The position numbers and the translations under genes were made by a program. From Minisyncoccota bacterium (GTDB lineage: Bacteria > Patescibacteriota > Minisyncoccia > Minisyncoccales > GWA2-38-27), in the NCBI GenBank assembly GCA_028687715.1, contig JAQTZP010000001.1:39876-103875 (forward strand): DNA of 64,000 bases. Direction: 5' to 3'. Of the stretch, positions 3,828 to 61,824 are shown in pieces; positions within the stretch are counted from its first letter, which is position 1, and every line of letters starts with the position of its first letter. Below the pieces are notes generated by a model, which had not been told where the DNA came from, made no database searches, and saw only the letters and a program-made list of their open reading frames with translations.

Positions 3828-6584
3828 ATGAAAAAAGAAACATTATATCTATTCTTGACTATTTCAATAATAGTTGCTTTTTTTATTCCTTTTGATTCTT
3901 ATGCTCTTTTAACTCCTCAAGTTTATTTAACTGAAATTCAATTGAATAAAGATACTTTTGAACCTAATCAGGAAATAACTGGAACTGTTAATTTGTGGAA
4001 TTATGAGAATTATGTGGTAAGCGACTTGTATTTTAATTTCCAGCTTATGGGAGAAGATGTTGATAATGTCCCTACTATGGCTATTGATGAGAAAACTGGT
4101 AATGAACAATTTACTCTACTGGCAGGGGAGAAAAAACACAAAAATTTTTCATATAGATTACCTAATAATTTACCGAACGGAAAACTTAAATTAAAGGTTC
4201 AGATTATTAACAGCAGGGGAGAGGGGATAAACTGGATATATAAAGAAATTATTATTGTAGGGGGAGGAAGATTTTTAAGTATAGGCAATTGTTGGTTTTT
4301 AAAAGAAGATTTAAAGTTTCCAACTGGAACAGGAGTTTACTACGAACCAAATGCAGTTCCGGAAGTGATTTTCGATATTATTAATTACTCTTCTTCTTCA
4401 ATCTCTGCTTACCCGAAGATAATAACCTATCGAAGAAACTCTATTGAAGCTGTAAGTGAAGATAAGGGCGGAATTGTAACTTTTAACCCTGATGATAAAA
4501 AAACACAAAGGCTTTTTCTTCCAAAACTTGAAAGGCCAGAATCATATTTAACAGCAATACGTTTCTACGATAGCGAAAGCAACGAACCAATTTCTAATAT
4601 CTCTTATTTCAGATGGATAATTTCAGGAGAAGATGACGCTCAAATTTTATTTGTCAGTTCGGATAAGAATTCTTATGAAGCAGATGAAATCGCAAAAATT
4701 AAAGTGCAGATTACTGGTCCGGCAGACCCAAGAGTTTCAGTAAATAGTTCAGATACAGAGATTAAAATACTTGACCAGAATGGCAAAGTTGTTGGAGAAA
4801 TTAAAAAAGAGACAAGATTTGGAGAGCTAGAGATTGATGTGCCGATTAAATCAAAGGTAGAAAATCCTAAAATTGAAGTAAAAATCACAAGCAATGGAAA
4901 GATTTTAGATGAGTATAATTTTATTGTTAATTCAGAGCAAAAAACAACTGAGCAAATACCTTTTTGGCAGAAAGATGGTTTTTTGACTAAATTTATTTTA
5001 TTTACAATATTATTTATAGCAGTTATGATAGGATTTATTTATTATTTTAGAAATAAAAAGAATAAATTTTTATTTATTTTATTGGCTATATTCTTAGGAA
5101 GTTTAGTTTTTATTTCTAATACGAGTGTAGTTTTTTCATTAGTGGAAGTTACAGAAGGCTGTCAAGATCCACATCATGGTGGCATGATTTCCGAAATTAG
5201 CATAAGTAGTCCTATTCCAAATTTAGTAATTAATCCTGGTGGTTCAATTCCGATAAATGGTCAAGTTTCAGTGGCAGATTGCGGCAACGGCTTATTTTTT
5301 AATAAGGTAACTTTTTACATAAAACAAGATGATAATGAACTAGAACATATGATAGATTGTTGCCAAAGAACTATAGAAAATTGTTCATTAGAGGGATGGT
5401 ATGGATGTGGCTGTTCTGTTGGTTGTGATAATTGTTATGGTGCTACCAGCCTTCATTACAAAGCATGTTATCCTTATACGGCGGTGCCTACTACAGGAGG
5501 ATGGAAGATTATAAAGGATGAAAACGCTGTTTTTTGTGATCAAGTAAAAGTATTAAAAACAGAGGGCAGTAACTTTATAAAATTGGGAGAATGTTATCCA
5601 AGAGATGTTCTAGAACATGGGCCTGGTACTTATATAGAATATAATCAAACCCCAAGTGTACCGTCTAATTTGGGATTTTATGGCAAAGCTCGTTTATATA
5701 TTCAGTTTTCTGGACTCCATGCAAGTAGCACTGGTTTAAGTGAATTTATGGCTGGTTGGTCTCCTCAATATGCAATAAAGATGGGTTGGGGAATCTGGAA
5801 GTGGGGTATTGTCTATCAAGATATATATATAAATAAACCTCCTTATACCAGTTCTTTGTCTGCTGACTCTAAGTATTGTGTTTCAGAGGGTATAGGAAGA
5901 GTTGATTTTAAATGGATATATAATGATGAAGATGTTATTGATGGAAATCTTGATAATCAGACCCAATATAATATTCAAATATCCGAAGATCAAAATTTTT
6001 ATAATCCGATAGTAGATAAATACATAAATCAGAATGTTCCTCCTTATAATCAAGGAACCTCTTCTGTTGTAGTCGTTCAAACACCTTCTTCCGGTCTTCA
6101 GATAGGATACAATAAGCATTATTATTGGAGAATAAGAGTTAAAGATAGTAATGAAGCTTGGTCCGGATGGTCGGGGGTAAATGATTTTTATACTCCTTCT
6201 CATCCTTACCCCTGGCCTAATTTTTCATCCGAACAGCTTCCCAATACTCAAAGAGTTAAATTTACAGATGAAACCAAGTTTTTTGATGGGAACTCAGGGC
6301 CGAGAACCTGGAGTTGGGATTTTGGAGACTCAACAGGTTCTTCTTTGCAAAATCCTGTTCATTTTTATTCACAAAGCGGGAGTTATCTAGTTAAATTACA
6401 TGTAGTTGATTCAGACGGTTACAGCTGTCCTCTTGAACCTAGGACTATTTCTGTTTCAAGCACGGATTTATTCAATATCCCAGGCTGGCGTGAAATTCCA
6501 CCCCCTATATTTAATCAAGGATTCTTAAACACTCTTTTTTCTCAAATCTTTGGCTTTATGCCCTGGAGCTTGCTAAATATTTGA
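3828..6584 (+). CDS. Large secreted/membrane protein with Cys-rich region, FN3-like and C-terminal PKD-like domain
   Basis: N-terminal signal-like segment and two mid-protein TM helices. WSWDFGDSTGSSLQNPVHFYSQSGSYLVKLHVVDSDG matches the PKD-domain pattern. Confidence 0.5.
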   Translation: MKKETLYLFLTISIIVAFFIPFDSYALLTPQVYLTEIQLNKDTFEPNQEITGTVNLWNYENYVVSDLYFNFQLMGEDVDNVPTMAIDEKTGNEQFTLLAGEKKHKNFSYRLPNNLPNGKLKLKVQIINSRGEGINWIYKEIIIVGGGRFLSIGNCWFLKEDLKFPTGTGVYYEPNAVPEVIFDIINYSSSSISAYPKIITYRRNSIEAVSEDKGGIVTFNPDDKKTQRLFLPKLERPESYLTAIRFYDSESNEPISNISYFRWIISGEDDAQILFVSSDKNSYEADEIAKIKVQITGPADPRVSVNSSDTEIKILDQNGKVVGEIKKETRFGELEIDVPIKSKVENPKIEVKITSNGKILDEYNFIVNSEQKTTEQIPFWQKDGFLTKFILFTILFIAVMIGFIYYFRNKKNKFLFILLAIFLGSLVFISNTSVVFSLVEVTEGCQDPHHGGMISEISISSPIPNLVINPGGSIPINGQVSVADCGNGLFFNKVTFYIKQDDNELEHMIDCCQRTIENCSLEGWYGCGCSVGCDNCYGATSLHYKACYPYTAVPTTGGWKIIKDENAVFCDQVKVLKTEGSNFIKLGECYPRDVLEHGPGTYIEYNQTPSVPSNLGFYGKARLYIQFSGLHASSTGLSEFMAGWSPQYAIKMGWGIWKWGIVYQDIYINKPPYTSSLSADSKYCVSEGIGRVDFKWIYNDEDVIDGNLDNQTQYNIQISEDQNFYNPIVDKYINQNVPPYNQGTSSVVVVQTPSSGLQIGYNKHYYWRIRVKDSNEAWSGWSGVNDFYTPSHPYPWPNFSSEQLPNTQRVKFTDETKFFDGNSGPRTWSWDFGDSTGSSLQNPVHFYSQSGSYLVKLHVVDSDGYSCPLEPRTISVSSTDLFNIPGWREIPPPIFNQGFLNTLFSQIFGFMPWSLLNI

Positions 6585-9781: not shown

Positions 9782-9866
9782 GGGTGCGTAGTCCCGTACG
9801 GCGCGGGAGCGGTCTGTAAAACCGTCGTCATTACTGGCCCAGGTGGTTCGACTCCACTCGCACCCA
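9782..9866 (+). tRNA. tRNA-Tyr (anticodon GTA), long variable arm, no encoded CCA
   Basis: Hand fold: acceptor GGGTGCG/CGCACCC; anticodon stem GCGGT/ACCGT with loop CTGTAAA; T arm GGTGGTTCGACTCCAC. Confidence 0.8.
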
Positions 9867-22434: not shown

Positions 22435-24846
22435 TTGAGAAAATATATGAAATTTATAAGAGATAAATTTCAGAAAACCAAAAAGGCAGTTAAGAAAAAA
22501 ACAATAAGGCATGACGAAGAAATAATCAAGAATCTATTTTTGGGAATTGCTTCGTTTGTTTTTCTTGCGGTTATTGTTTTTCTATTCCAAGAAGAATCAA
22601 GATTTAGGCATAATTTTTTGGCATCTGTAAGTTTGACTTTGCAGAAATCTGCTCCAAGCCCCAATGTTTTCTTTGCTTCGGCTCCTGATATTTCTCAAGG
22701 ATTGCCTTCTAATAAAGTCTATCCTCAAGGCAAGATATTTCCGTTTTCAGGCATCGGCGGAAATGCAAGCATTGATAAGGCAAATATGTTTACCATGGCA
22801 GGACCCTATTATGCCCAAGATCAATCATATTATTTAGAGAGAGCTAAAGAGGCGGGGTTAAAATACATTTTTTCCGTAGGGTATAATATAAGGATGAATA
22901 TCGATAATTACGATATGCCTCCATTTAATTTGTCAGAAGAGCAGGTTGTTGAAGAAATTCGCAGCCAAATATCTCCCTATTTGCTAGATGATGCCATTTC
23001 CTGGTGGTATTTATTGCCTGAAGAATCAAGGTGGTGGCGCTCTAAAGAAATTGAATATATTAGAATTGCCTCTAATGCGATTCATAGTATCGATCCGAAG
23101 AAAAGGCCTGTTTGGATGTATGAGCCCTGCCATCGTTCTTCAGACAATCTTTCTAAAATGATTCCTTATTTAGATATTGAAGGAAAGGGAATGTATACAA
23201 ATCATGTTGATATGAAAGAATCCAGGATTTTTTGCACTTGGACTATAGAACAGGAAAAAGAAGCTATAAATATTGCCAATCGAAATGCTGTCCCGATTGC
23301 CGTTCCTGAGTTATTTGGAAATATAGTTGGAGCGGATGAATACAATCTTATTCCGAATTGGGTGCGCCACGATGTTTATTCCGCTTTGATAGCGGGAGCA
23401 AAAGGAATTGTCATTTACAAAACATATAATTCAAACACTTCTTATTACAGAGAATACTACGATGCTTATGCAAAAATAGCTAATGAATTAAACGGTAGCC
23501 TTAATTTGGGCCAGGTATTTTTATTTGGACAAAAGCGCAATGATTTAGAAGTTACAGTAATTCAGGGACCCAATACAGTTAATTTTCTCTTTCCTGCCGG
23601 TGATGTTGAATCTCCAATAATTTATCCTTCTGTTAATTTTCTTGATATAGCTTACGGAAATAATCGTTATCTTTTTTTAGTGAATTCTGCCAACGAGCCT
23701 GTTCAGACAGCAGTTCGCGGATTTCCCTTATCGCAAACTATAATTAGAGATATTTTTAACAAAAATAGCATTGTAAATAGTTCTAACGGAAGCTTTAATC
23801 TTAATCTTGCTTCGTTTGAAGTAAAAGCTTTTAAATTTGAGAAGTCTGAACCAGAAGAGCCTGAACCAGAAATTCCAGATTGTCCTTCAGATGATAATAT
23901 CTGTACAACAGAGACATATTCTAATGGAAGATGCATTTCATATTATAACACCAGCACTTGCGATGACAACAATCCCTGCACTGAAAATGACAAATGTCAA
24001 AATGGGATATGTTTTGGAACAGCGATTGACTGCAATGATAATAACTCCTGTACGGTTGACAGCTGTGTAAACGGAGCCTGCCAGCATATCTTTGACAGCA
24101 GCTTCTTCGGCTGTCAATGCATTTTAAATTCAGATTGCAATGATAATAACATTTGCACCAGCGAAGTCTGTATTAATGGAAGTTGCGTCTTTTTAAACAA
24201 TAATAATTCCTGCGATGACAACAATCCCTGCACTGAAAATGACAAATGTCAAAATGGGATATGTTTTGGAGATTTAAAAGACTGCAATGATAACATCAGC
24301 TGTACAGAGGATTTCTGTTCTGGAGGAGTATGCATTCATTCAAGCGAAAAGTGCGGCTGTTTGAGCGATAGCGAGTGCAACAGCAATAATACCTGCGTAA
24401 ATGACTTTTGCAATCCAACAACGATGAAATGCGATAAGACATTTAACACTAATTTATGCAATGATAATAATCCGTTTACTATAAATGACAGGTGCCATGA
24501 AGGCTTTTGTTTTGGCGAATTGATATGCAATTTTAACTCCAGATGCGATGCCGAAAAAGGAGAAAGCTGTCTTAATTGTTCCTTTGACTGCGGTTTCTGT
24601 ACGGTCTATGAATCTTCGGCAGATAATAAAAATATTACTAAAACTGCTGCTAAAAGAACAATAAGCGAAGAAGATAAATCTCTTTTTTCCGAAGGCATTA
24701 AAAGAGAAAAGTCAGCGCCTTTTTCTTCTTTAAAAGCGCTCAAAGATTTAGTTATAGAATTCTTTAAAAGCTTGGAAGGAAAAATAATTCTATTCAGCTC
24801 AATAGCAATTTTTATAATTATACAAATCATCCTTATGGTATTATAA
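22435..24846 (+). CDS. Large surface protein with tandem Cys-rich CxDxNxCTxDxCxxGxC repeats and C-terminal TM anchor
   Basis: N-terminal TM/signal segment. At least 7 Cys-rich repeat units between aa ~490 and 700. C-terminal helix ILFSSIAIFIIIQIILMVL. Confidence 0.5.
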   Translation: MRKYMKFIRDKFQKTKKAVKKKTIRHDEEIIKNLFLGIASFVFLAVIVFLFQEESRFRHNFLASVSLTLQKSAPSPNVFFASAPDISQGLPSNKVYPQGKIFPFSGIGGNASIDKANMFTMAGPYYAQDQSYYLERAKEAGLKYIFSVGYNIRMNIDNYDMPPFNLSEEQVVEEIRSQISPYLLDDAISWWYLLPEESRWWRSKEIEYIRIASNAIHSIDPKKRPVWMYEPCHRSSDNLSKMIPYLDIEGKGMYTNHVDMKESRIFCTWTIEQEKEAINIANRNAVPIAVPELFGNIVGADEYNLIPNWVRHDVYSALIAGAKGIVIYKTYNSNTSYYREYYDAYAKIANELNGSLNLGQVFLFGQKRNDLEVTVIQGPNTVNFLFPAGDVESPIIYPSVNFLDIAYGNNRYLFLVNSANEPVQTAVRGFPLSQTIIRDIFNKNSIVNSSNGSFNLNLASFEVKAFKFEKSEPEEPEPEIPDCPSDDNICTTETYSNGRCISYYNTSTCDDNNPCTENDKCQNGICFGTAIDCNDNNSCTVDSCVNGACQHIFDSSFFGCQCILNSDCNDNNICTSEVCINGSCVFLNNNNSCDDNNPCTENDKCQNGICFGDLKDCNDNISCTEDFCSGGVCIHSSEKCGCLSDSECNSNNTCVNDFCNPTTMKCDKTFNTNLCNDNNPFTINDRCHEGFCFGELICNFNSRCDAEKGESCLNCSFDCGFCTVYESSADNKNITKTAAKRTISEEDKSLFSEGIKREKSAPFSSLKALKDLVIEFFKSLEGKIILFSSIAIFIIIQIILMVL

Positions 24847-24856
24847 TAAATATCTG

Positions 24857-24931
24857 GGGCAATTAGCTCAGCGGCAGAGCGCATCGTTCACATCGATGAG
24901 GACGCAGGTTCAAATCCTGCATTGCCCACCA
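24857..24931 (+). tRNA. tRNA-Val (anticodon CAC), CCA encoded
   Basis: Acceptor GGGCAAT/ATTGCCC; anticodon stem CATCG/CGATG with loop TTCACAT; T arm GCAGGTTCAAATCCTGC; ACCA end. Confidence 0.85.
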
Positions 24932-25068
24932 AGACCAGATTCCTCGGCACCAAAATTGTTTTATTTTTGGATTTTCTGGTATAATAAAGTAAAAGTCGGA
25001 GAAATAAAAATAACTAACCCACAAAATCGGGTATCGCATCTACCAGATTTGTGGCATAATGAAAACAT

Positions 25069-25836
25069 ATGACAACACCATTTTTCTGGTTAATCGGAGT
25101 AATTGTTTTTTTTGTCCTCATTGGCTTGAGGGTAGTTGATCAATATGAACGGGGCGTTATCTTAACTCTTGGAAAATATACAGGTACAAGGCAACCGGGT
25201 TTAACCTGGATATTGATCGGTGTTCAAAGAATAATTAAGGTTGATTTGCGTATCGCAACCGTTGATATTCCGCAGCAGGAGGTTATTACAAAAGATAATG
25301 TAACTGTTGGGATTAATGCCGTTGTTTATTTCCGAGTAGACAGCGCAGAAAAAGCGGTTTTGGAAGTTCAAGATTTTCGCCACGCTGTTGCTCTCTACGC
25401 TCAGGCGGCATTGCGGGATGTAATTGGCGGAATAGAATTAGACTTTCTGCTTTCCGAGAGAGATAAAATTGCTGAAGAAATAAAAAAGATCGTTGATGTG
25501 GCAACTGACCCTTGGGGTATTGATGTTTCTATAATTAAAATTCAGGATATTGAACTTCCAGCCGATATGAAGCGAGTAATGGCTAAGCAGGCAGAGGCTG
25601 AACGAGAAAGAAGGGCAATTATTATCCGAGCAGAAGGAGAATACATAGCATCTCAAAAACTATCCCAAGCGGCGCAGGTTCTTAGTTCTGTGCCTGGAGG
25701 AATCTCAATGCGAACTCTTCAAACGATTGAAAAGATTAACCCTGACCCTTCAAAAACCGTACTCTTTGCCTTGCCGATTGAGTTTATGGAAGGGATTAAA
25801 TCCCTTTCCAGTTTTCTAAAAGAAAAAGGTAAATAA
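25069..25836 (+). CDS. SPFH/band-7 (stomatin/prohibitin-like) membrane protein
   Basis: N-terminal TM helix, VVDQYERGVILTLGKY...PGLTWI, and QAEAERERRAIIIRAEGE. Confidence 0.85.
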   Translation: MTTPFFWLIGVIVFFVLIGLRVVDQYERGVILTLGKYTGTRQPGLTWILIGVQRIIKVDLRIATVDIPQQEVITKDNVTVGINAVVYFRVDSAEKAVLEVQDFRHAVALYAQAALRDVIGGIELDFLLSERDKIAEEIKKIVDVATDPWGIDVSIIKIQDIELPADMKRVMAKQAEAERERRAIIIRAEGEYIASQKLSQAAQVLSSVPGGISMRTLQTIEKINPDPSKTVLFALPIEFMEGIKSLSSFLKEKGK

Positions 25837-25850
25837 ATAGAATCTTAAAG

Positions 25851-26111
25851 ATGTTAATAAACATATTAAAAAGATTGTTTATTCCGGATTTTGCGTTCTT
25901 TCAAGATATTCAAGATATTACTAAAGAAAATCTTGAATTGATGAAAAGGCGCCGTGGTATAAGAAATTACAACGAATGGCTTAAAAATAAAAGGGCATGT
26001 TTAGAAGCGATTAAAAAAGAACGAGAAAAAAAATCATTAAAGATTCCTGAATCTTATAGCGAAAAAATCAACTTGCTTGAGGAAGAAATTAAAGAAACTG
26101 GATGGTTTTAA
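25851..26111 (+). CDS. Hypothetical protein (86 aa)
   Basis: ORF only. Confidence 0.35.
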   Translation: MLINILKRLFIPDFAFFQDIQDITKENLELMKRRRGIRNYNEWLKNKRACLEAIKKEREKKSLKIPESYSEKINLLEEEIKETGWF

Positions 26112-26921
26112 TTACTTAACTTCTTTAAGAAATTGTTCTGCAAGATCAGCGGTATCCTTGCTGCTTTGGTAAAAAGATTTCCAGACAACTACAATATCAG
26201 CGTCATTAAATATCGCCCGCTGCGCCTCTTTTAACGTATCTCCGCCGGCGATGGCAATAAGAATATTATAACTTCCCTTGATTCTCCTGATTTCGTGCAG
26301 GGGAATTTGTTTCTCTTTGTTAAGTCTTTCCTCATCTACGCCGCGGTGAAGAACGACTACTCGTGGCACTTTTTTTAATTGGCGCAAGACCGAAAGAGGA
26401 TACTCAACATTCATCATATCCACTATTGCGTCTAATCCTAAATCTTCGCACTTTTGAATAAAAGCATTAAGGGATTCAATAGGTGAATGCCCGAGCGCCA
26501 CCGCGGCATCTGCGCCAGCGGCTGCGGCTATTTCAACTTCTGTTTCGCCTCTGTCCATCATCTTTAAGTCCGCTACAACATAGGGGATTATTTCTGATTC
26601 TGGCAATGGCTTTTGAGCTGTTTTCGGCTGAGAATAATTTTTTACAGCAGCTTTCAAAAATAACGAAACTAACGAATTCGAGCCTGAAAAAGATGTTGCT
26701 GGTTCTAGCGTTTGCCCCCAAATACGCTGTTTATACCATTGCTTAATTTGTCTTATTCCCTCCTTTCCATAGCGTTTAATAAGCGGCGTTCCCGCTTCAA
26801 TCAAAATTCTGTCGCTAATGGGGACTTGAGCGATTATTTTGTGCGCTTCTTCAAGCGTACTGTTGAGTGCAATTTGAAGATAACGTTTTCTAGGACTAAG
26901 TTTTGATATTATTTTATTCAT
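26112..26921 (-). CDS. OMP-decarboxylase-family protein, 3-hexulose-6-phosphate synthase-like, with an internal ~45-aa insertion
   Basis: YLQIALN...ILIEAGTPLIKRYG, VADLKMMDRGETEVEIAAAAGAD, VLHRGVDE and IAIAGG line up with the HPS/KGPDC pattern. Confidence 0.55.
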   Translation of the reverse strand: MNKIISKLSPRKRYLQIALNSTLEEAHKIIAQVPISDRILIEAGTPLIKRYGKEGIRQIKQWYKQRIWGQTLEPATSFSGSNSLVSLFLKAAVKNYSQPKTAQKPLPESEIIPYVVADLKMMDRGETEVEIAAAAGADAAVALGHSPIESLNAFIQKCEDLGLDAIVDMMNVEYPLSVLRQLKKVPRVVVLHRGVDEERLNKEKQIPLHEIRRIKGSYNILIAIAGGDTLKEAQRAIFNDADIVVVWKSFYQSSKDTADLAEQFLKEVK

Positions 26922-26984
26922 ATCTTACTGTACTTTTATTATATTAAGAATTCAAAAATAAAACAATCTCGTAAAATAATCAAT

Positions 26985-27060
26985 GGGCGGGAGGCAGCGG
27001 CTTTTTCCTAAAGTCGAGAATTTCTGATAAAATAAGTTCGAGCGGAGTCATATAGATACA
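26985..27060 (+). repeat. Degenerate fourth copy (D) of the junction element: half hairpin plus promoter-like TGATAAAAT plus AGTTCGAGC
   Basis: gggcgggaggcagcggctttttcc...gaatttctgataaaataagttcgagcggagtcatata aligns with copies B and C (58360-58420; 61665-61735). Confidence 0.5.
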
Positions 27061-27135
27061 TATTAATAATTTTGACAAATTATAAGCGGGTAGTATTATT
27101 AATCAATACAGCTCTTTTTTTCAAAGGAGAATCAG

Positions 27136-27360
27136 ATGAACTGGAAGCTGGCGGAAAAAGAAATTAATGTATTGGGCATAAAAAAAGAAAATAATGAGCT
27201 ATACGTGTTTTTATATGATGATGGAAATAAAGCAAAGATTATAGAGGTATTTCGCCGTTTTGCTTCAAATCCGGAACTCAGCTTTACTTCTTATGACGCA
27301 TATCGTTTAACTTGTAGAATCAATAGGCGTAGAAGTTATCGCAGGAAAAGGTTTAGATAG
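27136..27360 (+). CDS. Hypothetical small protein with Arg-rich tail (74 aa)
   Basis: GGAG RBS 7 nt upstream of the ATG; no recognised motif. Confidence 0.4.
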   Translation: MNWKLAEKEINVLGIKKENNELYVFLYDDGNKAKIIEVFRRFASNPELSFTSYDAYRLTCRINRRRSYRRKRFR

Positions 27361-27406
27361 TCAAGCACCTTATAAATCGGAGATTATTCTCCGCATTTTT
27401 TTATTT

Positions 27407-27604
27407 AATAAAATGCCCCTTTGAACTGGTCAAAGGGGCCGAGGGCGTATTGCCGGGGGACTAGGCAGAAGAACAACACGTCCTGTTCGCCGGTCCAAAT
27501 AACTATTCAGACCGGCCTTAGAAAGGCAGTTTGAGCCGCATTTCCTTTCTCCTAATTAGTCCAAGGAGCGGGACGTGCGATTACTCCTAACAAAAGGTGC
27601 AGAT
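27407..27604 (-). ncRNA. Orphan structured RNA candidate (~200 nt) of unassigned class
   Basis: Minus-strand promoter: TTGACT (27638-27633), 16 nt, TATAAT (27616-27611). G+C-rich body with several stems. Terminator GCCCCUUUGA-CCAGU-UCAAAGGGGC (27439-27415) followed by AUUUUAUU. Confidence 0.55.
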
Positions 27605-27694
27605 TATTTAATTATAGAGAAACCAGATAGCGAGTCAAGGGGTTTCTATCCACAGACAACTTGGTAGTTTTTTTTATTATGTTATAATTATTTA

Positions 27695-28081
27695 ATGGAA
27701 AGAGTAATTTTTTATAACTATTTAGTCTGGCATTTTATTGATATTCCCAAAAAGATTATAAAGGGGTGGAGCAACTTTCTTTACTTTAACTTCAATTATT
27801 TCTCAATCCCTGTGCTCATTATGACTTTATTCTCCCATTACAGAAGATATTATTATCCCTATGGAGATAAGTTGGATCCTTGGCGCTATGTTGAGGCTTT
27901 TGTTTTCAATAATATTCTTTCAAGGTTTATTGGAATGCTTTTTAGGAGCATTTTTATTATTTTAGGACTTATTATCGAAACCTTGATATTTATCATAGGA
28001 CTATTATTTTTATTAACCTGGCTTTTATCTCCTGTTTTAAGTATTTCCCTTTTCTTATTCGGGATAAATACTGCTTTTTAA
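27695..28081 (+). CDS. Hypothetical multi-pass membrane protein
   Basis: Hydrophobic helices; immediately upstream of the Clp-like ATPase. Confidence 0.45.
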   Translation: MERVIFYNYLVWHFIDIPKKIIKGWSNFLYFNFNYFSIPVLIMTLFSHYRRYYYPYGDKLDPWRYVEAFVFNNILSRFIGMLFRSIFIILGLIIETLIFIIGLLFLLTWLLSPVLSISLFLFGINTAF

Positions 28082-41105: not shown

Positions 41106-41226
41106 AGAATTTGGTGAATAATATTCTTTTTTAACTGTAAAACAAAAGCCCTTTGCAAATCGTTGAGACGAAATGCAAAGGGTTAAAAGTCCAAGGCCAA
41201 AGAGCAAAAGCTCAAAGTCCAAAGGA

Positions 41227-41745
41227 CTAACTTGAAGATACCTGCGAGACAGCCGATAAGCTCCCGACAAGCCAGTCGTCGACGAGCCAGCCGTCGATCC
41301 AGGGGAAGAGATCACCACCGCAGCGGTAAAGGTACAGCACGCTCCGGCGGCTAAACGGCGGCTGAAGCACAAGACCAGGAAAGTCGATGAAGGTAATCCC
41401 CTTGGTCTTGTAAAGCTGCTCCAGGACGCTGGCTTTCTTCTCCTCTTTCTCCTGGTAATCATTCCAGAGAGAAAGGAACGCCCGACCGCCCAGACGCACT
41501 TTACCGCCAACCTTCAGATGCTTCAATCTCTCTTCCCCGGTAATCGATGACTCGCCCTCTTTCAGGCAAGTCTCGAAATCCACCGTGGACCAGTCCAGTT
41601 CATTGATGCCGTCCTCGCGTTCATCGCGCTCAATGACCTTCCAGTCCTTGCCGACGAATTCAGCGGGGTTAAAGTTGGGGGCCAGCTTAAGGACGAACGA
41701 CGTAACGGTAGCCGTCATCTCACACCATCCTTTCTTTTCCTGCAC
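41227..41745 (-). CDS. G+C-rich hypothetical protein, paralog of 44645..45229 (start may be the internal ATG at 41718)
   Basis: Shares WK/R-V/I...LDWSTVDF/VDFSKVDF...LW.DY...SVLE..Y..KGI...F.G pattern with 44645..45229. Own terminator CCCTTTGCA...TGCAAAGGG plus CTTTTGTTTT on the minus strand (41176-41140). Confidence 0.55.
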   Translation of the reverse strand: MQEKKGWCEMTATVTSFVLKLAPNFNPAEFVGKDWKVIERDEREDGINELDWSTVDFETCLKEGESSITGEERLKHLKVGGKVRLGGRAFLSLWNDYQEKEEKKASVLEQLYKTKGITFIDFPGLVLQPPFSRRSVLYLYRCGGDLFPWIDGWLVDDWLVGSLSAVSQVSSS

Positions 41746-42691: not shown

Positions 42692-44089
42692 TCAGCCTGT
42701 AGCGTATTCATCTTGATTTAATTCTTCCTGTGGATATTCGTGCTTTTCAAGGTTTCTAAATGAAGCCCTTTGTTCGTCAAAATAAAGCTCAATTTTTCCA
42801 ACAGGTCCGTTTCTGTGCTTGGCAATGATTATATCAGCGATATTTTTTCTTGTTGTGTCTTCCCTGTATCTGTCTTCTCTGTAGATAAACAAAACAACAT
42901 CTGCGTCCTGTTCTAAAGAGCCCGATTCCCGCAGATCAGCTAAGCGGGGAACCTGAGGAGTTCTTTGTTCTACTGCTCTTGATAATTGGGACAGGGCTAA
43001 AACAGGGATATTAAGCTCTCTGGCTAAGATTTTTAAAGACCTGGATATTTCAGTAACCTGCTGGACCGGGCTGGCTGAAGGGTTTCTCGGCTCCATCAAT
43101 TGGAGATAGTCAATGATAAGCATTCCCAGACCCTTGTCAGCCTGAAGTCTTCTTGCCATTGCTCTCATCTGCAGGATATTTGATGAGGCGGCGTCATCGA
43201 TATAGATTGGGGCTTCAGACAGAATGCCCATAGACTGCTGGATTCTGGAGAAGTCGTTTTCTTCGCCCTCGCTTGAAAGTCTGCCTGTTCTTATCTTCCA
43301 TAAGTCAACATTGGAAAAATGAGATATCAGCCTGTCTACTATCTGGTCATTAGACATCTCCAAACTAAAGATTCCCACTGGTATTTTTTTTAAAGCAGCA
43401 ATATTTGCAGCAAAGTTCAAGGCCAGGCTTGATTTTCCCATAGACGGTCTTGAGGCTAAGATTATTAAGTCGGATTTTTGAAAGCCTGCCAGGATTTTAT
43501 CTAAATCATTAAATCCGCTGGGAACCCCCCTTAAGTCTCCTTGATGCTTTGATAATCGGTCAATTCTTTCAAAAGCCTCTTCAAGAGAATCTTTTACAAG
43601 GAGAAATTTCTGGGTCAGGCTTCCCTGGGCAATACTGAATATTTTCTGTTCTGCTTTATCTAAAAGAATATCAATATCTTCTTCTTCATTATGGCCGATT
43701 GAATCAATTTCCTTGCTGGCTTCAATTAAGTCTCTTAGAAGCCTTTTTCTATGGACTATTTTAGCGTAATTAGAAATATGGGTTGAGGTTGGGACAAAGT
43801 TTACAAGCTCTGTTAAATAGCTGGTTCCTCCTATTTCTTCTAAGAGGTTTTTTTCTTTCAGTCTGCCCGAGACAGCTAATAGGTCAATAGGCTCTTGCCT
43901 TTCAAACAGCTCTATGACTGTTTGATATATTTCCTGATGATTCTTTCTGTAGAAATCTTTTACCGAAAGAAAATCAGCAACTTTTATAATCGCATTTTTA
44001 TCAATAAGAAGAGCGCCTAAAACCGATTTCTCGGCTTCAATGCTTTGAGGGGGGATAATAGACTCTTTGTTTTTTAAATTATTCTCCAT
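42692..44089 (-). CDS. dnaB: Replicative DNA helicase DnaB
   Basis: PPQSIEAEKSVLGALL, GFNDLD, ASRPSMGKSSLALN, IIDYLQLM, LSQLSRAVEQR. Confidence 0.9.
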   Translation of the reverse strand: MENNLKNKESIIPPQSIEAEKSVLGALLIDKNAIIKVADFLSVKDFYRKNHQEIYQTVIELFERQEPIDLLAVSGRLKEKNLLEEIGGTSYLTELVNFVPTSTHISNYAKIVHRKRLLRDLIEASKEIDSIGHNEEEDIDILLDKAEQKIFSIAQGSLTQKFLLVKDSLEEAFERIDRLSKHQGDLRGVPSGFNDLDKILAGFQKSDLIILASRPSMGKSSLALNFAANIAALKKIPVGIFSLEMSNDQIVDRLISHFSNVDLWKIRTGRLSSEGEENDFSRIQQSMGILSEAPIYIDDAASSNILQMRAMARRLQADKGLGMLIIDYLQLMEPRNPSASPVQQVTEISRSLKILARELNIPVLALSQLSRAVEQRTPQVPRLADLRESGSLEQDADVVLFIYREDRYREDTTRKNIADIIIAKHRNGPVGKIELYFDEQRASFRNLEKHEYPQEELNQDEYATG

Positions 44090-44228
44090 ACCTTATCTAT
44101 AACAGAAAGCAAAACTGCTGACAAGATATTGACAATTACGATAAAATATGTTATATAATTAGTAGTGATAAGGACCCCCAGAGTCCTTTTTGCAAAACAG
44201 GCTTTTGGCATACAGGAGGAAGGACGCC

Positions 44229-44483
44229 ATGGCCATTATCGCGGGACGTGCAAACGGCAGGGGTGCGGGTTTGCGGCTTGTTCTGCCTGATTTCAGGCTG
44301 GAGCAGGTCAAAGAAGAGGTTCGGATTCACGGCAGGGTGGCCTTGGACAACAGGGTCAATCGGGCCAAGATGTCCGAACAGGAAGCCACTCGTCTTCGCG
44401 AGATCGCGGAGGGGCTTGAGCGTGAGGCAGAGCGGCTTTACGAAGAGGCCCGTCTGGTACGGCGGGCGATTACATCAAAATGA
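44229..44483 (+). CDS. G+C-rich small hypothetical protein (84 aa from the ATG at 44229), coiled-coil C-terminus
   Basis: RBS caggaggaagg precedes the ATG at 44229. Upstream promoter has TTGACA at 44130. Terminator GCCCTGACA...TGTCAGGGC plus TTTTTTA at 44509-44549. Confidence 0.45.
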   Translation: MAIIAGRANGRGAGLRLVLPDFRLEQVKEEVRIHGRVALDNRVNRAKMSEQEATRLREIAEGLEREAERLYEEARLVRRAITSK

Positions 44484-44644
44484 ATCATGCTCAGTGACCC
44501 AACGAGAAGCCCTGACAGCTTTAATTAAGAGTTGTCAGGGCATTTTTTATTTCTTTGACACAAAGAAGATAAAGGTATATAAGGTTAATTAGCAAGATGG
44601 AGGACGTCCTCTATCGTTTAAACAAGCCTTGAGGAGAGAGTCTG

Positions 44645-55578: not shown

Positions 55579-55692
55579 CAATCAAACTTTTTTCGCTTTT
55601 CTTGAAATTTTTCGTGGCGGCGCTTTGCGCCGCCCGCGAAAATTTGGGAAAATTTCCAGAAAGTCAGATTATTGTGCGTTTATACAACCTCA

Positions 55693-55868
55693 CTCGAACT
55701 CATTTTATCAAAAATTCTTGAGAAAAACAATTGTCCCGCCCCGCTTGTGCGGGGCGGGACAGAAAACCCAAAAGTCGCTCGGGCGGGGCGGGAAGAAAAA
55801 GGGGTGTGGGGAAAATGAATTCCCGCCCCCGCCCTCGCTTTCTATGCGGGAAAAATTTATTTTTTAAA
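55693..55868 (-). repeat. Junction element copy A (two GC-rich hairpins, T-tract, promoter-like box); perfect inverted copy of 58231..58406
   Basis: Base-by-base comparison with the reverse complement of 58231-58406: 176/176 identical. Hairpin 1 is GTCCCGCCCCGC-TTGT-GCGGGGCGGGAC. Hairpin 2 is GGGCGGGGCGGGAA...TTCCCGCCCCCGCCC. Confidence 0.9.
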
Positions 55869-56318
55869 AATCATTTTAATCCTCGGCTCACCGTCTCCAA
55901 AATAATTTTCCTTTGGTTTTCCGACTTGTTTAAATCCAAAAAATTTATATATATGCATCGCTGCTGCATTGTCTGGATGTGTAAGCAGTTCAACTATTTT
56001 TACTTCTTTCAAATCTTCGAGTAAAATTTTTATGGCTTCTTTTCCAATTCCTTGGCCCTTATATTTTGAATTAACACAGAGCCCACTAATATATGCTGTA
56101 TTTTTATTTTTCATCTCATATGAAATATCACCCACGATTTCACCGTCCATAATAATGGCATAAACCATTGCATTTCCTTTTGCCAGCTCATCCAGCCATT
56201 CTTTTTCAGTCAGCATTGCTGAATATGTTTTTGAAGACGCAGTTTTTTCAATTTCAATCAATGTTGGAATGTCTTCCTCCTCAATTTTTCGTAAACTGAT
56301 TTTTAATTTATTTTTCAT
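55857..56318 (-). CDS. GNAT family N-acetyltransferase
   Basis: CVNSKYKGQGIGKEAIKILLE (acetyl-CoA loop Q/RxxGxG/A). The last 4 codons lie inside repeat A. Confidence 0.8.
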   Translation of the reverse strand: MKNKLKISLRKIEEEDIPTLIEIEKTASSKTYSAMLTEKEWLDELAKGNAMVYAIIMDGEIVGDISYEMKNKNTAYISGLCVNSKYKGQGIGKEAIKILLEDLKEVKIVELLTHPDNAAAMHIYKFFGFKQVGKPKENYFGDGEPRIKMIFKK

Positions 56319-56716: not shown

Positions 56717-57265
56717 TTATTTTTTTGAAATTAAACTCAAAAGTAAGGGAAACTTTTTGTATGGCTGATTAAACATATTAGAACCCATATGGCCTTCGTG
56801 TTTTATAATTTGCGTGCCACCAAGATTGTCAAAAAATAACCTACCTTGTTTATCGTTGTATTGCCATGGGTCATCATCTGAATTTATGTAATAGAATTCT
56901 TCTGCTTTGTCTTTTATTTTTGCCCAATCAAAATCATCAACGCTGTTTTCACTGTCTGCATTTTTCCGTAATGCTTTAGCATAACCAGATACCAAAATCG
57001 CCTGTTTGATTTTTACATCCAGTTTTTCTAAAACACTTGGAATTATTTGAGCGCCGGCCGAATGCCCAATAATAACTGTTTCAGAAGTAAACTCCCAATT
57101 TTCCAAAATAAAAGGCAACCAATCTTTGCGATTTGGTTTGTCGCTTGCAGGAAGTTGCGGAAGCCAGACTTTATATCCTATTTTTTCTAATTCCTCTTTA
57201 AGCCAAGGAAACCAAAAATCGGTTGGTTTGTCTTTTGTTCCGTGTAATATAATTGCGTTTTTCAT
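56717..57265 (-). CDS. Alpha/beta serine hydrolase (YdeN/RBBP9-like)
   Basis: AIILHGT..., nucleophile elbow IIGHSAGA, C-terminal HEGHMG. Confidence 0.65.
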   Translation of the reverse strand: MKNAIILHGTKDKPTDFWFPWLKEELEKIGYKVWLPQLPASDKPNRKDWLPFILENWEFTSETVIIGHSAGAQIIPSVLEKLDVKIKQAILVSGYAKALRKNADSENSVDDFDWAKIKDKAEEFYYINSDDDPWQYNDKQGRLFFDNLGGTQIIKHEGHMGSNMFNQPYKKFPLLLSLISKK

Positions 57266-57344
57266 AATTATTTTATCCTACCAAAAAATTGTGCTAATTA
57301 AAAGTTAAAGCCCCGTCGATTGCTCGTACGGGGCTCTTGCGATG

Positions 57345-57995
57345 TCAGCTGCAGCGCAGGCACTTCTTGCGATTGTGCCGGGACAGAATCCTTACCGTAC
57401 TAGACGGAGTTGGAATCTGCGATTCGATTTCGTAGACACAATTGAAGACGATGCCACAGCTTTTGCACTTTCCGACTTGCTCACTACTATCAGGTACAGG
57501 ACCCTGAACAGACTTGTTCCACCCTGGAGCGTGGGTTTCGCAAAGTCCGCCACCGGGCGTGGGTGTGTCGCAGAGTGCACACGTGCACTGGCAACTCTCC
57601 AAGTGTTCGTAACAGACGTAACAAATACACTTGCAGAAAGCAGTATCACGGTTGCACTTGTAGCACCAGGCAGGATCGTCGTAATCGTCATCATCATAGC
57701 CGTCGTCCGGCTCGATGATAGAACGGTTTTCTTCGATTGCCCGGAATTCCTCCTGCATCCACTTCCACTCTTGGTCGGTGATTTGGCCAGAGATCAGGTG
57801 AGCTGAGTTAAAGTCACCTGCCTCGGGACAATTACCACCAGTCACCTTTTTCAAGGCGCAGTCGTAGCACAACGGCTCGTCCTGCTTACGCCCAAGAGCG
57901 TACCCCCAATATGTGATTTCGTCGGAATCATTCCTCTCAAAGAACTTGTTGCAAATTTTACACTTCTGGCTTGAAACTTTCTTCTGCTTCGACAT
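57345..57995 (-). CDS. G+C-rich Cys-rich protein (216 aa) with several CxxC pairs and an acidic DDGYDDDDYDD patch
   Basis: KCKICNKFF...CYDC, WCYKCNRDTAFCKCICYVCYEHLESCQCTCALCD, KCKSCG, KKCLRCS. Own promoter (TTGACA-17-TAATAT at 58178-58150, minus strand). Terminator AGCCCCGT...ACGGGGCT (57310-57336). Confidence 0.6.
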   Translation of the reverse strand: MSKQKKVSSQKCKICNKFFERNDSDEITYWGYALGRKQDEPLCYDCALKKVTGGNCPEAGDFNSAHLISGQITDQEWKWMQEEFRAIEENRSIIEPDDGYDDDDYDDPAWCYKCNRDTAFCKCICYVCYEHLESCQCTCALCDTPTPGGGLCETHAPGWNKSVQGPVPDSSEQVGKCKSCGIVFNCVYEIESQIPTPSSTVRILSRHNRKKCLRCS

Positions 57996-58230
57996 TTCTC
58001 AATCTCCTTTTACCGGGTTTGTAAACAAACTGACGATAATTGGAGATATACCCGCTTGCTCCTTTCGGAGGGGTGAAGGGCTGAACCAATCTCTCTTGAT
58101 CCTGATTCCCAACAGACCAAGAGAATATATCTAAATTTGCTCCGTAATTATATTATCATATTATTAAATATATGTCAATAGTGTGTGGTCTAAACAGTGT
58201 GGGTGGCCACAACAACACAATAAAAAAATA

Positions 58231-58406
58231 TTTAAAAAATAAATTTTTCCCGCATAGAAAGCGAGGGCGGGGGCGGGAATTCATTTTCCCCACACCCCTT
58301 TTTCTTCCCGCCCCGCCCGAGCGACTTTTGGGTTTTCTGTCCCGCCCCGCACAAGCGGGGCGGGACAATTGTTTTTCTCAAGAATTTTTGATAAAATGAG
58401 TTCGAG
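58231..58406 (+). repeat. Junction element copy B (archetype orientation: hairpin 2, hairpin 1 plus T-tract, TTGTTT-17-TAAAAT, ATGAGTTCGAG)
   Basis: Identical to the reverse complement of 55693-55868. Lies in the divergent region between the Cys-rich gene and the kinase-like gene. Confidence 0.9.
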
Positions 58407-58514
58407 CAGAATTGTATATATGCTCCAGTATATTTACAACCACGCTTTAAATAAGACGTTGTTGTCTTATTTAAAGATCGTTCTTTCACAACAAAAATAA
58501 GGAGGACTCTGAAA

Positions 58515-59144: not shown

Positions 59145-60211
59145 AAAAACCGATCATTTCCGTTAACCAAATGATGTCCTGTTATTTCCGTACTTCAGTT
59201 CAATCACCTTACCGGAAAGCGCTCGTGCAGATTACCGAATGGTGCAATCTGCATTGTTCGCATTGCTTTGTCTCGGCCGGACAATACGGTGACACCATGT
59301 CGCTGGAAAGTGTCCGTGATATTCTTGTGCCTCGTCTCAAAGAATGTCGCGTGCTGAACGTAACGCTTACTGGCGGCGAGCCATTCGCGCACCCTAACGT
59401 CATCGAGATTGTATCGCTTTGCAAAGATGCTGGCATGAAAGTTGGCATCTGTACGAACGCAACTTGCATTAGCGAAGATCAGATGAAAGCGCTCGCAGCG
59501 TTGGGAGCACATTGCAACGTCAGTTTGGACGGTTTCTCTCCGGAGAGTCATGGCAGGTTTCGCGGCGATAAAGCGTCGTTTGCAACCACCATTTCAACCA
59601 TTGAGATGGTGGCCAGATACGGTTTGTTGCAAGGGTTTTTGGTGACTCCTAACAATCTCGCCGAGGTCGAGGAGTATGCAAAGATTTGCGAGTTCGCTAC
59701 GGTAAACGGTGCAACGTATGTGTTGATGAATCCGCTTTCGTCCATGGGAAGAGGCGTAAAGACGGCGGGAAAGCTCGGAGTTTCCAACGAGGTAATGCGT
59801 CAGATTGCCAACGTAACTTCACAGTTCGCGGACAAAGTCGAGATAGTACCTATCCGATTTCCGAACGAAAAGAAGTTGCCGCTTACGGGATGCGAAGCGG
59901 GCAATATTATCTACGTTTTTACCCTCGGCGAACTCACGGTATGTCCCTATCTAGTGTTTTCAGCACGGACGCCGCAGAGTCAACACAAGGCAGAAGAATT
60001 TATCGTTGGCAATATCTTTCGCGATGCCAATATTGCCGTTCGCCTTGATGAATACAAACTCCTTGAGCGGTATCGTCTCGGTGGTAATCCGACATGCGGA
60101 GGATGTCGTCTTAACGCCGAGTGCGGCAAAGGATGTCCCGCAGCGATCATTTCCTCTGGCAAGCGAATAGAGGAAATGGACGCAGAGGTGTGTCCGGTCT
60201 TCATTCGGTAA
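59141..60211 (+). CDS. Radical SAM enzyme with C-terminal SPASM/twitch-type auxiliary-cluster domain
   Basis: CNLHCSHCF (CxxxCxxC), LTGGEPFAHP. C-terminal GCEAG...CPY...CGGCRLNAECGKGCPA...C. ATGA overlap with the kinase-like gene. Confidence 0.8.
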   Translation: MKKPIISVNQMMSCYFRTSVQSPYRKALVQITEWCNLHCSHCFVSAGQYGDTMSLESVRDILVPRLKECRVLNVTLTGGEPFAHPNVIEIVSLCKDAGMKVGICTNATCISEDQMKALAALGAHCNVSLDGFSPESHGRFRGDKASFATTISTIEMVARYGLLQGFLVTPNNLAEVEEYAKICEFATVNGATYVLMNPLSSMGRGVKTAGKLGVSNEVMRQIANVTSQFADKVEIVPIRFPNEKKLPLTGCEAGNIIYVFTLGELTVCPYLVFSARTPQSQHKAEEFIVGNIFRDANIAVRLDEYKLLERYRLGGNPTCGGCRLNAECGKGCPAAIISSGKRIEEMDAEVCPVFIR

Positions 60212-61620: not shown

Positions 61621-61740
61621 TCTTTTTGCCCGCGAACCGACAGGTTTTCCTGCCCGCCCCCGCCGTTCGGCGGGACGGGACGTTGTTTTTTATAGGAATT
61701 CTTAATAAAATGAGTTCGAGCGTAGTTGTGAATATACTCC
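61621..61740 (+). repeat. Junction element copy C (diverged: single imperfect GC hairpin plus T-tract, TTGTTT-17-TAAAAT, ATGAGTTCGAGC)
   Basis: GCCCGCCCCCGCC-GTTC-GGCGGGACGGGAC followed by GTTGTTTTTT, then cttaataaaatgagttcgagcgtagttgtgaatatactcc. Aligns with copy B. Confidence 0.7.
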
Positions 61741-61824
61741 ATAATCAAACTTAACTCTTTTTCAGATACTTTTTGATGGACTTCCATTTTTAAACCCATA
61801 TTTTATTATTAAATAAAAATAATA

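Follow-up and report, generated by a model that had tools for sequence, protein, structure and literature searches.

We describe here a candidate small non-coding RNA encoded in a stretch of 64,000 nt of contig JAQTZP010000001.1 from a Minisyncoccota bacterium (assembly GCA_028687715.1), referred to below as the window. In a reading that we put forward tentatively and would not yet call probable, a 334-bp gap between two protein genes would hold an independent minus-strand gene for an RNA of ~190 nt, peculiar to this Pacebacteria lineage and probably acting in trans. That a discrete RNA is made from the locus, whatever its role, seems somewhat likelier. The locus had been picked out in an initial annotation, made from the sequence alone, as an orphan structured RNA of unassigned class. 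To our knowledge, almost nothing is known of RNA-based regulation in the Candidate Phyla Radiation (CPR), whose genomes are tiny, uncultured and, as far as we know, mostly without known RNA chaperones. In such a genome, an RNA that stands alone, folds tightly and has a strong promoter would, if true, give metatranscriptomic and structural work a concrete handle. At present the candidate comes from a single genome and has no evolutionary support; it is useful for annotation and as a lead, but does not yet amount to a discovery.

Promoter, terminator and predicted fold

The gap is bounded by an open reading frame (ORF) of 74 aa (27136-27360, plus strand) and one of 128 aa (27695-28081, plus strand). 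As first annotated, its minus strand carries a promoter, TTGACT-16-TATAAT, which spans 27638..27611 and agrees with the consensus at 11 of 12 positions; on its two strands together the window has only nine sites of this quality, where first-order Markov simulations lead one to expect 1.8. The usual distance of 7 nt to the −10 hexamer would place the transcription start near 27604. The perfect 10-bp terminator hairpin reported at the other end is likewise present at 27439..27415 on the minus strand, with arms that can also be written GCCCCUUUGA/UCAAAGGGGC, and is followed by the U-rich tail ATTTTATT. The convergent 74-aa gene has its own terminator at 27378-27393, 22 nt from that of the RNA, with an A/T tract common to both; since the RNA and the 74-aa gene have separate terminators, these look like two designed transcript ends and not a single shared hairpin. 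The body had been described as richer in G+C than its surroundings, and its G+C fraction is indeed 0.44-0.49 over 27325-27624 vs 0.29-0.32 on the flanks, with a window mean of 0.36; the core of the RNA reaches 0.52 vs 0.36, within the range of the tRNA genes of the window (0.46-0.60). The locus is very probably a designed transcription unit, and it has what is generically found in small RNA genes: an intergenic position, a promoter of its own and a Rho-independent terminator, with only a 7-codon ORF bearing a ribosome-binding site, and that one inside the fold.

When folded from ~27604, the transcript has a minimum free energy (MFE) of -73 kcal/mol (z = -4.17), a stability that was not equalled in any of 200 dinucleotide shuffles. 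In both the MFE and the centroid structure, the RNA is a four-way junction in which a long closing helix of ~17 pairs, with CACGUCC/GGACGUG at its top, surrounds three hairpins (Table 1); nearly all pairs reach a probability of 0.9 or more. The top of this helix and all three hairpins are those that had been proposed from the sequence, and the same modules form in truncated transcripts at every length from 130 nt on. A further pairing, GGACUA with UAGUCC, had been seen as competing with this fold. Both strings are present, in the loop of hairpin 1 (27562-27557) and in the 3′ linker (27463-27458), but they do not compete with it, since both are unpaired in the MFE structure; pairing between them would give a possible pseudoknot of 6 bp, with a calculated duplex energy of -8.5 kcal/mol, that is compatible with the rest of the fold.

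Table 1. Positions of the predicted elements of the RNA locus, numbered along the window
Feature	Position	Strand	Basis
-35 hexamer TTGACT	27633..27638	-	part of 11/12 promoter match
-10 hexamer TATAAT, 16-nt spacer	27611..27616	-	read from sequence
5′ leader AUCUGCACCUUUUGU, U-rich, unpaired	27590..27604	-	MFE structure; all co-transcriptional snapshots from 145 nt on
Closing helix, 5′ strand (UAGGAG.AAU.GCACGUCC)	27571..27589	-	pairs with 27466-27483; probabilities 0.84-0.99, terminal U-G 0.61
Hairpin 1: CUCCU / 10-nt loop UUGGACUAAU / AGGAG	27549..27568	-	pair probabilities 0.94-0.99
Hairpin 2: GGAAA.GCGG / CUCAAA / CUGC.UUUCU	27520..27545	-	pair probabilities 0.89-0.97
Mini-ORF AUG CGG CUC AAA CUG CCU UUC UAA (MRLKLPF, 7 codons)	27518..27541	-	read from sequence
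Hairpin 3: unbroken 12-bp stem GCCGGUCUGAAU / AGUU / AUUUGGACCGGC, two G-U pairs	27489..27516	-	pair probabilities 0.81-1.0
Closing helix, 3′ strand (GGACGUGU.GUUCUUCUG)	27466..27483	-	MFE structure, pair probabilities
Linker CCUAGUCCCCCGGCAAUACGCCCUCG, 26 nt, C-rich, mostly unpaired	27440..27465	-	pair probabilities
Intrinsic terminator, 10 bp + 5-nt loop, GCCCCTTTGA/TCAAAGGGGC	27439..27415	-	pair probabilities 0.9-1.0
U-tract AUUUUAUU	27407..27414	-	tail after terminator hairpin

In the mechanism that we propose, RNA polymerase would start from this near-consensus sigma-70-type promoter, and the transcript would fold co-transcriptionally into a compact four-way junction, possibly locked by pairing of the hairpin-1 loop with the 3′ linker in the 6-bp pseudoknot. 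Transcription would then stop constitutively at the intrinsic terminator, which is a strong one. Exposed in the product would be a U-rich 5′ end of 15 nt, a loop of 10 nt and, beside the terminator, a C-rich linker of 26 nt. The RNA would act in trans, either pairing with targets through these segments or serving as a scaffold for proteins, instead of controlling a neighbour in cis. Transcription, the stability of the RNA, the pseudoknot and the trans-acting role with its target are all things that we infer. As to cis control, no antiterminator was found: with the 3′ arm of the terminator blocked, or in truncated transcripts, the 5′ arm had only weak local partners and the junction was unchanged. 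Since the 5′ arm has no alternative partner, termination looks constitutive, which argues against a switch. The statement that no gene lies downstream for the RNA to regulate in cis is in keeping with the gene map, where the next minus-strand ORF (26921..26112) begins ~490 nt on, beyond the convergent 74-aa gene.

With respect to coding content, there is no minus-strand ORF of at least 30 aa in the gap, and translations of the region in the three plus-strand frames gave no Pfam match. The claim that the gap holds no ORF with a ribosome-binding site is not strictly correct, since AGGAG (27553-27549) stands 7 nt before the AUG of the 7-codon ORF MRLKLPF. The Shine–Dalgarno sequence and the AUG are both paired in the predicted fold, and a degenerate search for the Shine–Dalgarno sequence together with this peptide gave no match in 241 million metagenome records; the mini-ORF is probably fortuitous.

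Relatives and known RNA families

For comparison with relatives, 134 loci with a total length of 1.31 Mb were fetched, as neighbourhoods of roughly 20 kb and not as whole genomes. They comprise ClpC-linked loci from a protein collection (L003-L008), loci from 43 GTDB genomes (L009-L051), 80 HPS-linked metagenome contigs (L054-L133), and contigs carrying members of the 74-aa protein family (L052, L053 and L134). The searches used short-word blastn, nhmmer and R2, a covariance model of the core that was built on a single-sequence structure and has low sensitivity; on L052 and L053 this model was run with default filters only.

Several results weigh against a functional RNA gene. No homologue was found in the 134 loci by any of the three methods, with the RNA absent even from loci whose HPS-like proteins are 85-88% identical, and the only other copies, in the Logan contigs L001 (complete) and L002 (partial), are 100% identical, so that the three identical copies apparently come from the same organism. 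Because there is no homologue and only identical copies, the structure, a thermodynamic prediction from one sequence, has neither covariation nor any sign of selection behind it; models built on a single sequence have little sensitivity, and the relatives were scanned as neighbourhoods only. The fold is strong but not unique: after correction for G+C the region exceeds its expected stability by 2.8 standard deviations and takes 24th place among 2554 windows of 150 nt, which puts it in the top 1%, behind several other parts of the stretch. Finally, the longest perfect complementarity between the RNA and transcripts of the window is 11 nt, with ~10 such matches found vs ~6 expected in the 64 kb searched; as this is about the level of chance, no target can be named. 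The initial annotation had counted a lack of conservation in relatives, together with a lack of transcription, as grounds for giving up the RNA, and within the 134 loci the first of these is what we observed. The RNA is an orphan with respect to Rfam, and the idea of a conserved structured class finds no support in the relatives examined, in none of which a copy was found.

Searches beyond these loci were also negative, with no blastn match in phage and plasmid collections and no match of exact or degenerate patterns in viral contigs. The closest ClpC relatives are 63-67% identical, and the 128-aa protein has a single distant homologue (56% identity) with a differing upstream region; in relatives, the gaps upstream of the 128-aa gene are short or of ordinary composition. 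Near that only homologue, a G+C-rich, hairpin-rich segment without an Rfam match (L003, 1-140, minus strand) is cut by the contig end and lies upstream of a gene for a small CxxC protein. Two sets of candidate homologues were rejected. Weak hits of R2 antisense inside clpC (L017, L025 and L026) had the whole core deleted and matched only the tail, and were discarded as chance; the clpC of the window itself has no such complementarity to the RNA (-13.8 kcal/mol). An element in L064 that by eye seemed to resemble the RNA reached only 5.5 bits and did not align. It belongs to a segment (5133-5345) in which a tRNA-Leu(GAG), read from the sequence, is followed by ~120 nt ending in a near-copy of the tRNA 3′ end (..GUCCCUUCCCGGGCAC); the segment lies among clustered tRNAs, upstream of the HPS-like gene, and may be an integration scar.

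Known RNA families were searched with the 4227 models of Rfam 15, at gathering thresholds and also at E <= 10 (27300-27750, lax filters) and E <= 5 (whole window). At gathering thresholds, the whole window gave only seven tRNAs and an L10 leader, with nothing at the locus. The sole match at E <= 10 within 27300-27750 was a 14-bit match to Rev13, on the opposite strand and over the terminator of the neighbouring gene, while at E <= 5 there was nothing at the locus and no candidate for RNase P RNA, signal recognition particle (SRP) RNA, 6S RNA or transfer-messenger RNA (tmRNA) anywhere in the 64 kb. The scan that had been proposed, with 6S, SRP, RNase P and raiA named in particular, has thus matched the RNA to no family, even at E <= 10. 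ARAGORN found eight tRNAs elsewhere in the window and no tRNA or tmRNA at 27407-27650, and the T-loop strings UUCGAAU and UUCAAAU are absent from the RNA. So are the RNase P strings of conserved region (CR) I (GAGGAAAGUCC; GGAAAGUCC) and CR-V (ACAGAA...GGCUUA), which together form P4 in RNase P, and the closing helix is continuous, without a P3-like hairpin between its lower and upper parts. None of the hairpin loops (UUGGACUAAU, CUCAAA and AGUU) provides the GNAR tetraloop, or GGAA cap, of SRP helix 8, and the conserved symmetric and asymmetric loops of that helix (AGCA / GGAA) are lacking as well. Inspection, Rfam and ARAGORN therefore agree with the earlier finding of no SRP, RNase P, tmRNA or riboswitch signatures, and the class is left unassigned because nothing alike was found, not because the RNA resembles something exotic.

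Among known systems, the layout of the RNA recalls the trans-encoded small RNAs with C-rich seeds of Gram-positive bacteria, to which its exposed U-rich 5′ end, loop and C-rich linker could be compared. Like RsaE/RoxS of the Firmicutes, it would come from a stand-alone intergenic gene that starts with a promoter of the sigma-70 type and closes with a Rho-independent terminator. It would also share the size range of 100-200 nt and have, beside the terminator, unpaired C-rich segments (GUCCCCC and CGCCCUC) for which ribosome-binding sites rich in G could be pairing partners. Unlike these RNAs, it has a four-way-junction body instead of a few simple hairpins, has no sequence or Rfam match to them, offers no definable conserved seed since no homologue is available, and has no target above chance in the window. 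The cloverleaf topology, in which the 7-bp CACGUCC/GGACGUG closes three hairpins with junctions of 2 nt and 3 nt, is shared with tRNA and, on a longer stem, with YrlA; the arms, however, are far longer, there is no T-loop or D-loop signature and no Ro/Rsr gene nearby, and neither ARAGORN nor the tRNA clan models of Rfam detect it. With 6S RNA it shares a length of ~190 nt and extensive pairing between the 5′ and 3′ parts, but its core is multibranched where 6S is a rod with a large central bubble, there is no match to the Rfam 6S models, and it is absent from the relatives examined. Transcriptional riboswitches and raiA RNAs, some of the latter free-standing too, likewise have an intrinsic terminator after a complex junction that may be pseudoknotted; the RNA described here differs from both in having no Rfam match, no antiterminator, no downstream gene and no phylogenetic distribution.

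Genomic setting and competing explanations

The order of genes around the RNA is tRNA-Val, Band_7/SPFH, an 86-aa ORF, the HPS-like gene (minus strand), the 74-aa gene, the RNA (minus strand), the 128-aa gene, ClpC-like, MraZ, RsmH and the division cluster. The HPS-like gene, which is the next minus-strand ORF mentioned above, encodes a protein with the fold of orotidine monophosphate (OMP) decarboxylase, the 128-aa product is a membrane protein, and the gene after it encodes the ClpC-like ATPase. In relatives, tRNA-Val sits 1.3-1.7 kb 5′ of clpC, so the tRNA-Val-clpC interval is variable, and the 128-aa/ClpC pair is usually preceded by a same-strand gene for a membrane protein of ~115 aa, which is missing here, with the RNA in its place on the opposite strand. 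The RNA had been assigned to a tRNA-Val-linked accessory segment. The variability of the interval bears this out, but Band_7 and the HPS-like gene within it form a convergent pair (25069-26921) that is kept in most of the 80 metagenome loci, at protein identities of 53-88% for HPS-like and 61-92% for Band_7, and genes so widely conserved as a pair are not accessory; peculiar to this genome are only the 74-aa gene, the 86-aa ORF and the RNA. In L130 the HPS-like/Band_7 module is inverted, showing that the interval has been rearranged between genomes. A repeat of the tRNA-Val 3′ end, as a tRNA-derived att site or integration boundary would have, was not found in 24700-27800.

Two observations concern the neighbours themselves. 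The identity of the Band_7/HPS-like pair, up to 88-92%, far exceeds the 63-67% of the nearest ClpC, which suggests that the pair either is very strongly conserved or has spread laterally. The 128-aa/ClpC operon, whose promoter-like sites stand back-to-back with the RNA promoter, has as its best such site TTGGTA-16-TATAAT with TG (27661-27695), which ends 7 nt before the ATG at 27695; for this reason its mRNA may be leaderless.

The 74-aa gene appears to be a real gene of its own, with a ribosome-binding site (AAAGGAG, 6 nt, ATG) and an 11/12 promoter in addition to the terminator described above. Its family has 509 representatives at E <= 1e-3, with the conserved core RFASNPELSFTWYDAA and an invariant FASNPELSF..YDA, and no Pfam, NCBIfam or PADLOC match was found for the protein, which ends in an Arg-rich tail (RRRSYRRKRFR). 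The AlphaFold model has a predicted local distance difference test (pLDDT) score of only 59, so no RNA-binding fold can be claimed for it. Homologues with readable context are followed by a same-strand gene, which in L052 and L053 encodes a xerC-type recombinase; no recombinase stands beside the 74-aa gene at this locus. The position of xerC in those two contigs raised the suspicion that the G+C-rich stretch is a decayed xerC. This candidate was rejected: the best tblastn score, 19.2 bits, was reached by 30 of 300 dinucleotide shuffles, and Pfam gave nothing. A decayed gene for the ~115-aa membrane protein was rejected as well, with no similarity in the region. Upstream of the 74-aa gene lies one of four copies of the 17-nt motif ATAAAATRAGTTCGAGC (0.07 expected), which are found at 27027-27043 (plus), 55692-55708 (minus), 58391-58407 (plus) and 61705-61721 (plus), embedded in a conserved element of ~75 nt with a G-rich box. 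The plus-strand copies precede the starts of the 74-aa gene, a thymidylate kinase gene and a GH3 glycosidase gene by 93-108 nt, and the element is likely a shared regulatory or 5′ untranslated region element.

Against this background, the locus could instead be non-functional DNA, a G+C-rich leftover of rearrangement or transfer between the HPS-like/Band_7 module and the operon of the 128-aa gene and clpC (p128-clpC), which carries a promoter and a terminator by chance or retention and yields a functionless transcript. We regard this as unlikely, though as the likeliest of the alternatives. The absence of the RNA from all relatives examined, including those with 85-88% identical HPS-like proteins, would follow naturally from it, as would the rearranged interval, with its inverted module in L130 and a ~115-aa gene at this position in relatives, and the raised G+C of the neighbouring accessory genes (0.40-0.49); yet the tests for a coding remnant (xerC, Pfam and the upstream membrane protein) were all negative, and it is unlikely that a promoter among the nine best, a 10-bp terminator correctly placed on the same strand and, between them, a fold with z = -4.2 should coincide by chance. 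Distinctly less credence goes to an RNA whose role is to bind a protein, as scaffold, decoy or partner, with the adjacent 74-aa protein as one candidate. A compact four-way junction with high-probability helices and few long single-stranded stretches would suit such a role, and the convergent gene for the Arg-tailed protein is only 47 nt away and, like the RNA, is missing in relatives from both the HPS-linked and the ClpC-linked loci; elsewhere, though, those members of this large family whose context could be read are followed by a same-strand gene, with no such RNA, and the structure model is poor. It is improbable, too, that the element is a cis attenuator or orphan riboswitch, in which a ligand-binding junction would set the read-through of an antisense RNA across the 74-aa gene and towards the HPS-like gene. 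Listeria and Clostridium provide known cases of antisense RNAs under riboswitch control, the order of structured domain, linker and terminator is as such a device would require, and the DNA downstream lies antisense to a genuine gene that has a ribosome-binding site and promoter of its own. Set against this are the lack of an antiterminator, a junction that is unchanged with the 3′ arm blocked or absent, the lack of any Rfam riboswitch match or of conservation upstream of the HPS-like gene in the 80 loci, and the promoter-like sites that the HPS-like gene has of its own.

The remaining explanations concern what kind of RNA this would be. A highly diverged housekeeping RNA (6S, a minimal RNase P or SRP RNA) that the Rfam models miss in the CPR seems very improbable to us. 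In its favour, the size is near that of 6S, and no RNase P, SRP, 6S or tmRNA gene was found in the window, an inspection that covered 64 kb of the genome only. CPR RNase P RNAs below Rfam thresholds are known, and hits as weak as 5-15 bits were used for them (PMC8172020). Here, on the other hand, there is no Rfam match at E <= 10, the four-way junction is not the rod of 6S, and neither a P3 hairpin, GGAAAGUCC or ACAGAA...GGCUUA nor a GGAA-capped helix 8 is present; furthermore, a housekeeping RNA should be conserved, and this one lies in a variable interval and is absent from every relative examined. Least credible of all is a short translated unit, with MRLKLPF as a leader or arrest-type peptide and the RNA as the orphaned leader of a lost gene. 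The AGGAG-7 nt-AUG spacing is near that of the AGGAG-6 nt-ATG of the 74-aa gene, and we put the probability that 200 nt would contain it by chance at roughly 0.02-0.04. The R-L-K (+x+) motif within the peptide is known from macrolide arrest peptides. However, the Shine–Dalgarno sequence and AUG are paired at a probability >0.9, no gene lies downstream, and the metagenome records hold no other instance. A long shot, on a par with the attenuator, is that a new class of structured CPR RNAs is seen here for the first time, in the form of a pseudoknotted four-way junction binding a ligand or protein; relatives of the RNA would be too diverged, or sited elsewhere, for a single-sequence model applied to ~20-kb neighbourhoods. 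The trans-acting small RNA with an independent gene is the explanation that we prefer among these.

Other structured or repeated elements in the window

The window contains an inverted repeat of 203 nt, 95% complementary between 55676-55878 and 58221-58423, with a partial third copy at 61683-61752. It flanks a segment of 2.3 kb that encodes a GNAT acetyltransferase, a nucleoside 2-deoxyribosyltransferase-like protein and a serine hydrolase, and each arm, which is among the strongest-folding regions of the window, has a G+C-rich palindrome (TGTCCCGCCCCGC..GCGGGGCGGGACA). The segment could be an invertible or mobile cassette. Further G+C-rich stretches occur at 41201-41600, 44001-44600, 57201-58000 and 59201-60000 (0.47-0.55 vs 0.36 for the window), several of which show strong G+C-corrected folding and have no Rfam match. 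At 9782-9866, a tRNA identified by ARAGORN as tRNA-Tyr (GTA) also scores 40.6 bits on the Rfam tRNA-Sec model, for which the threshold is 47, presumably owing to its long variable arm.

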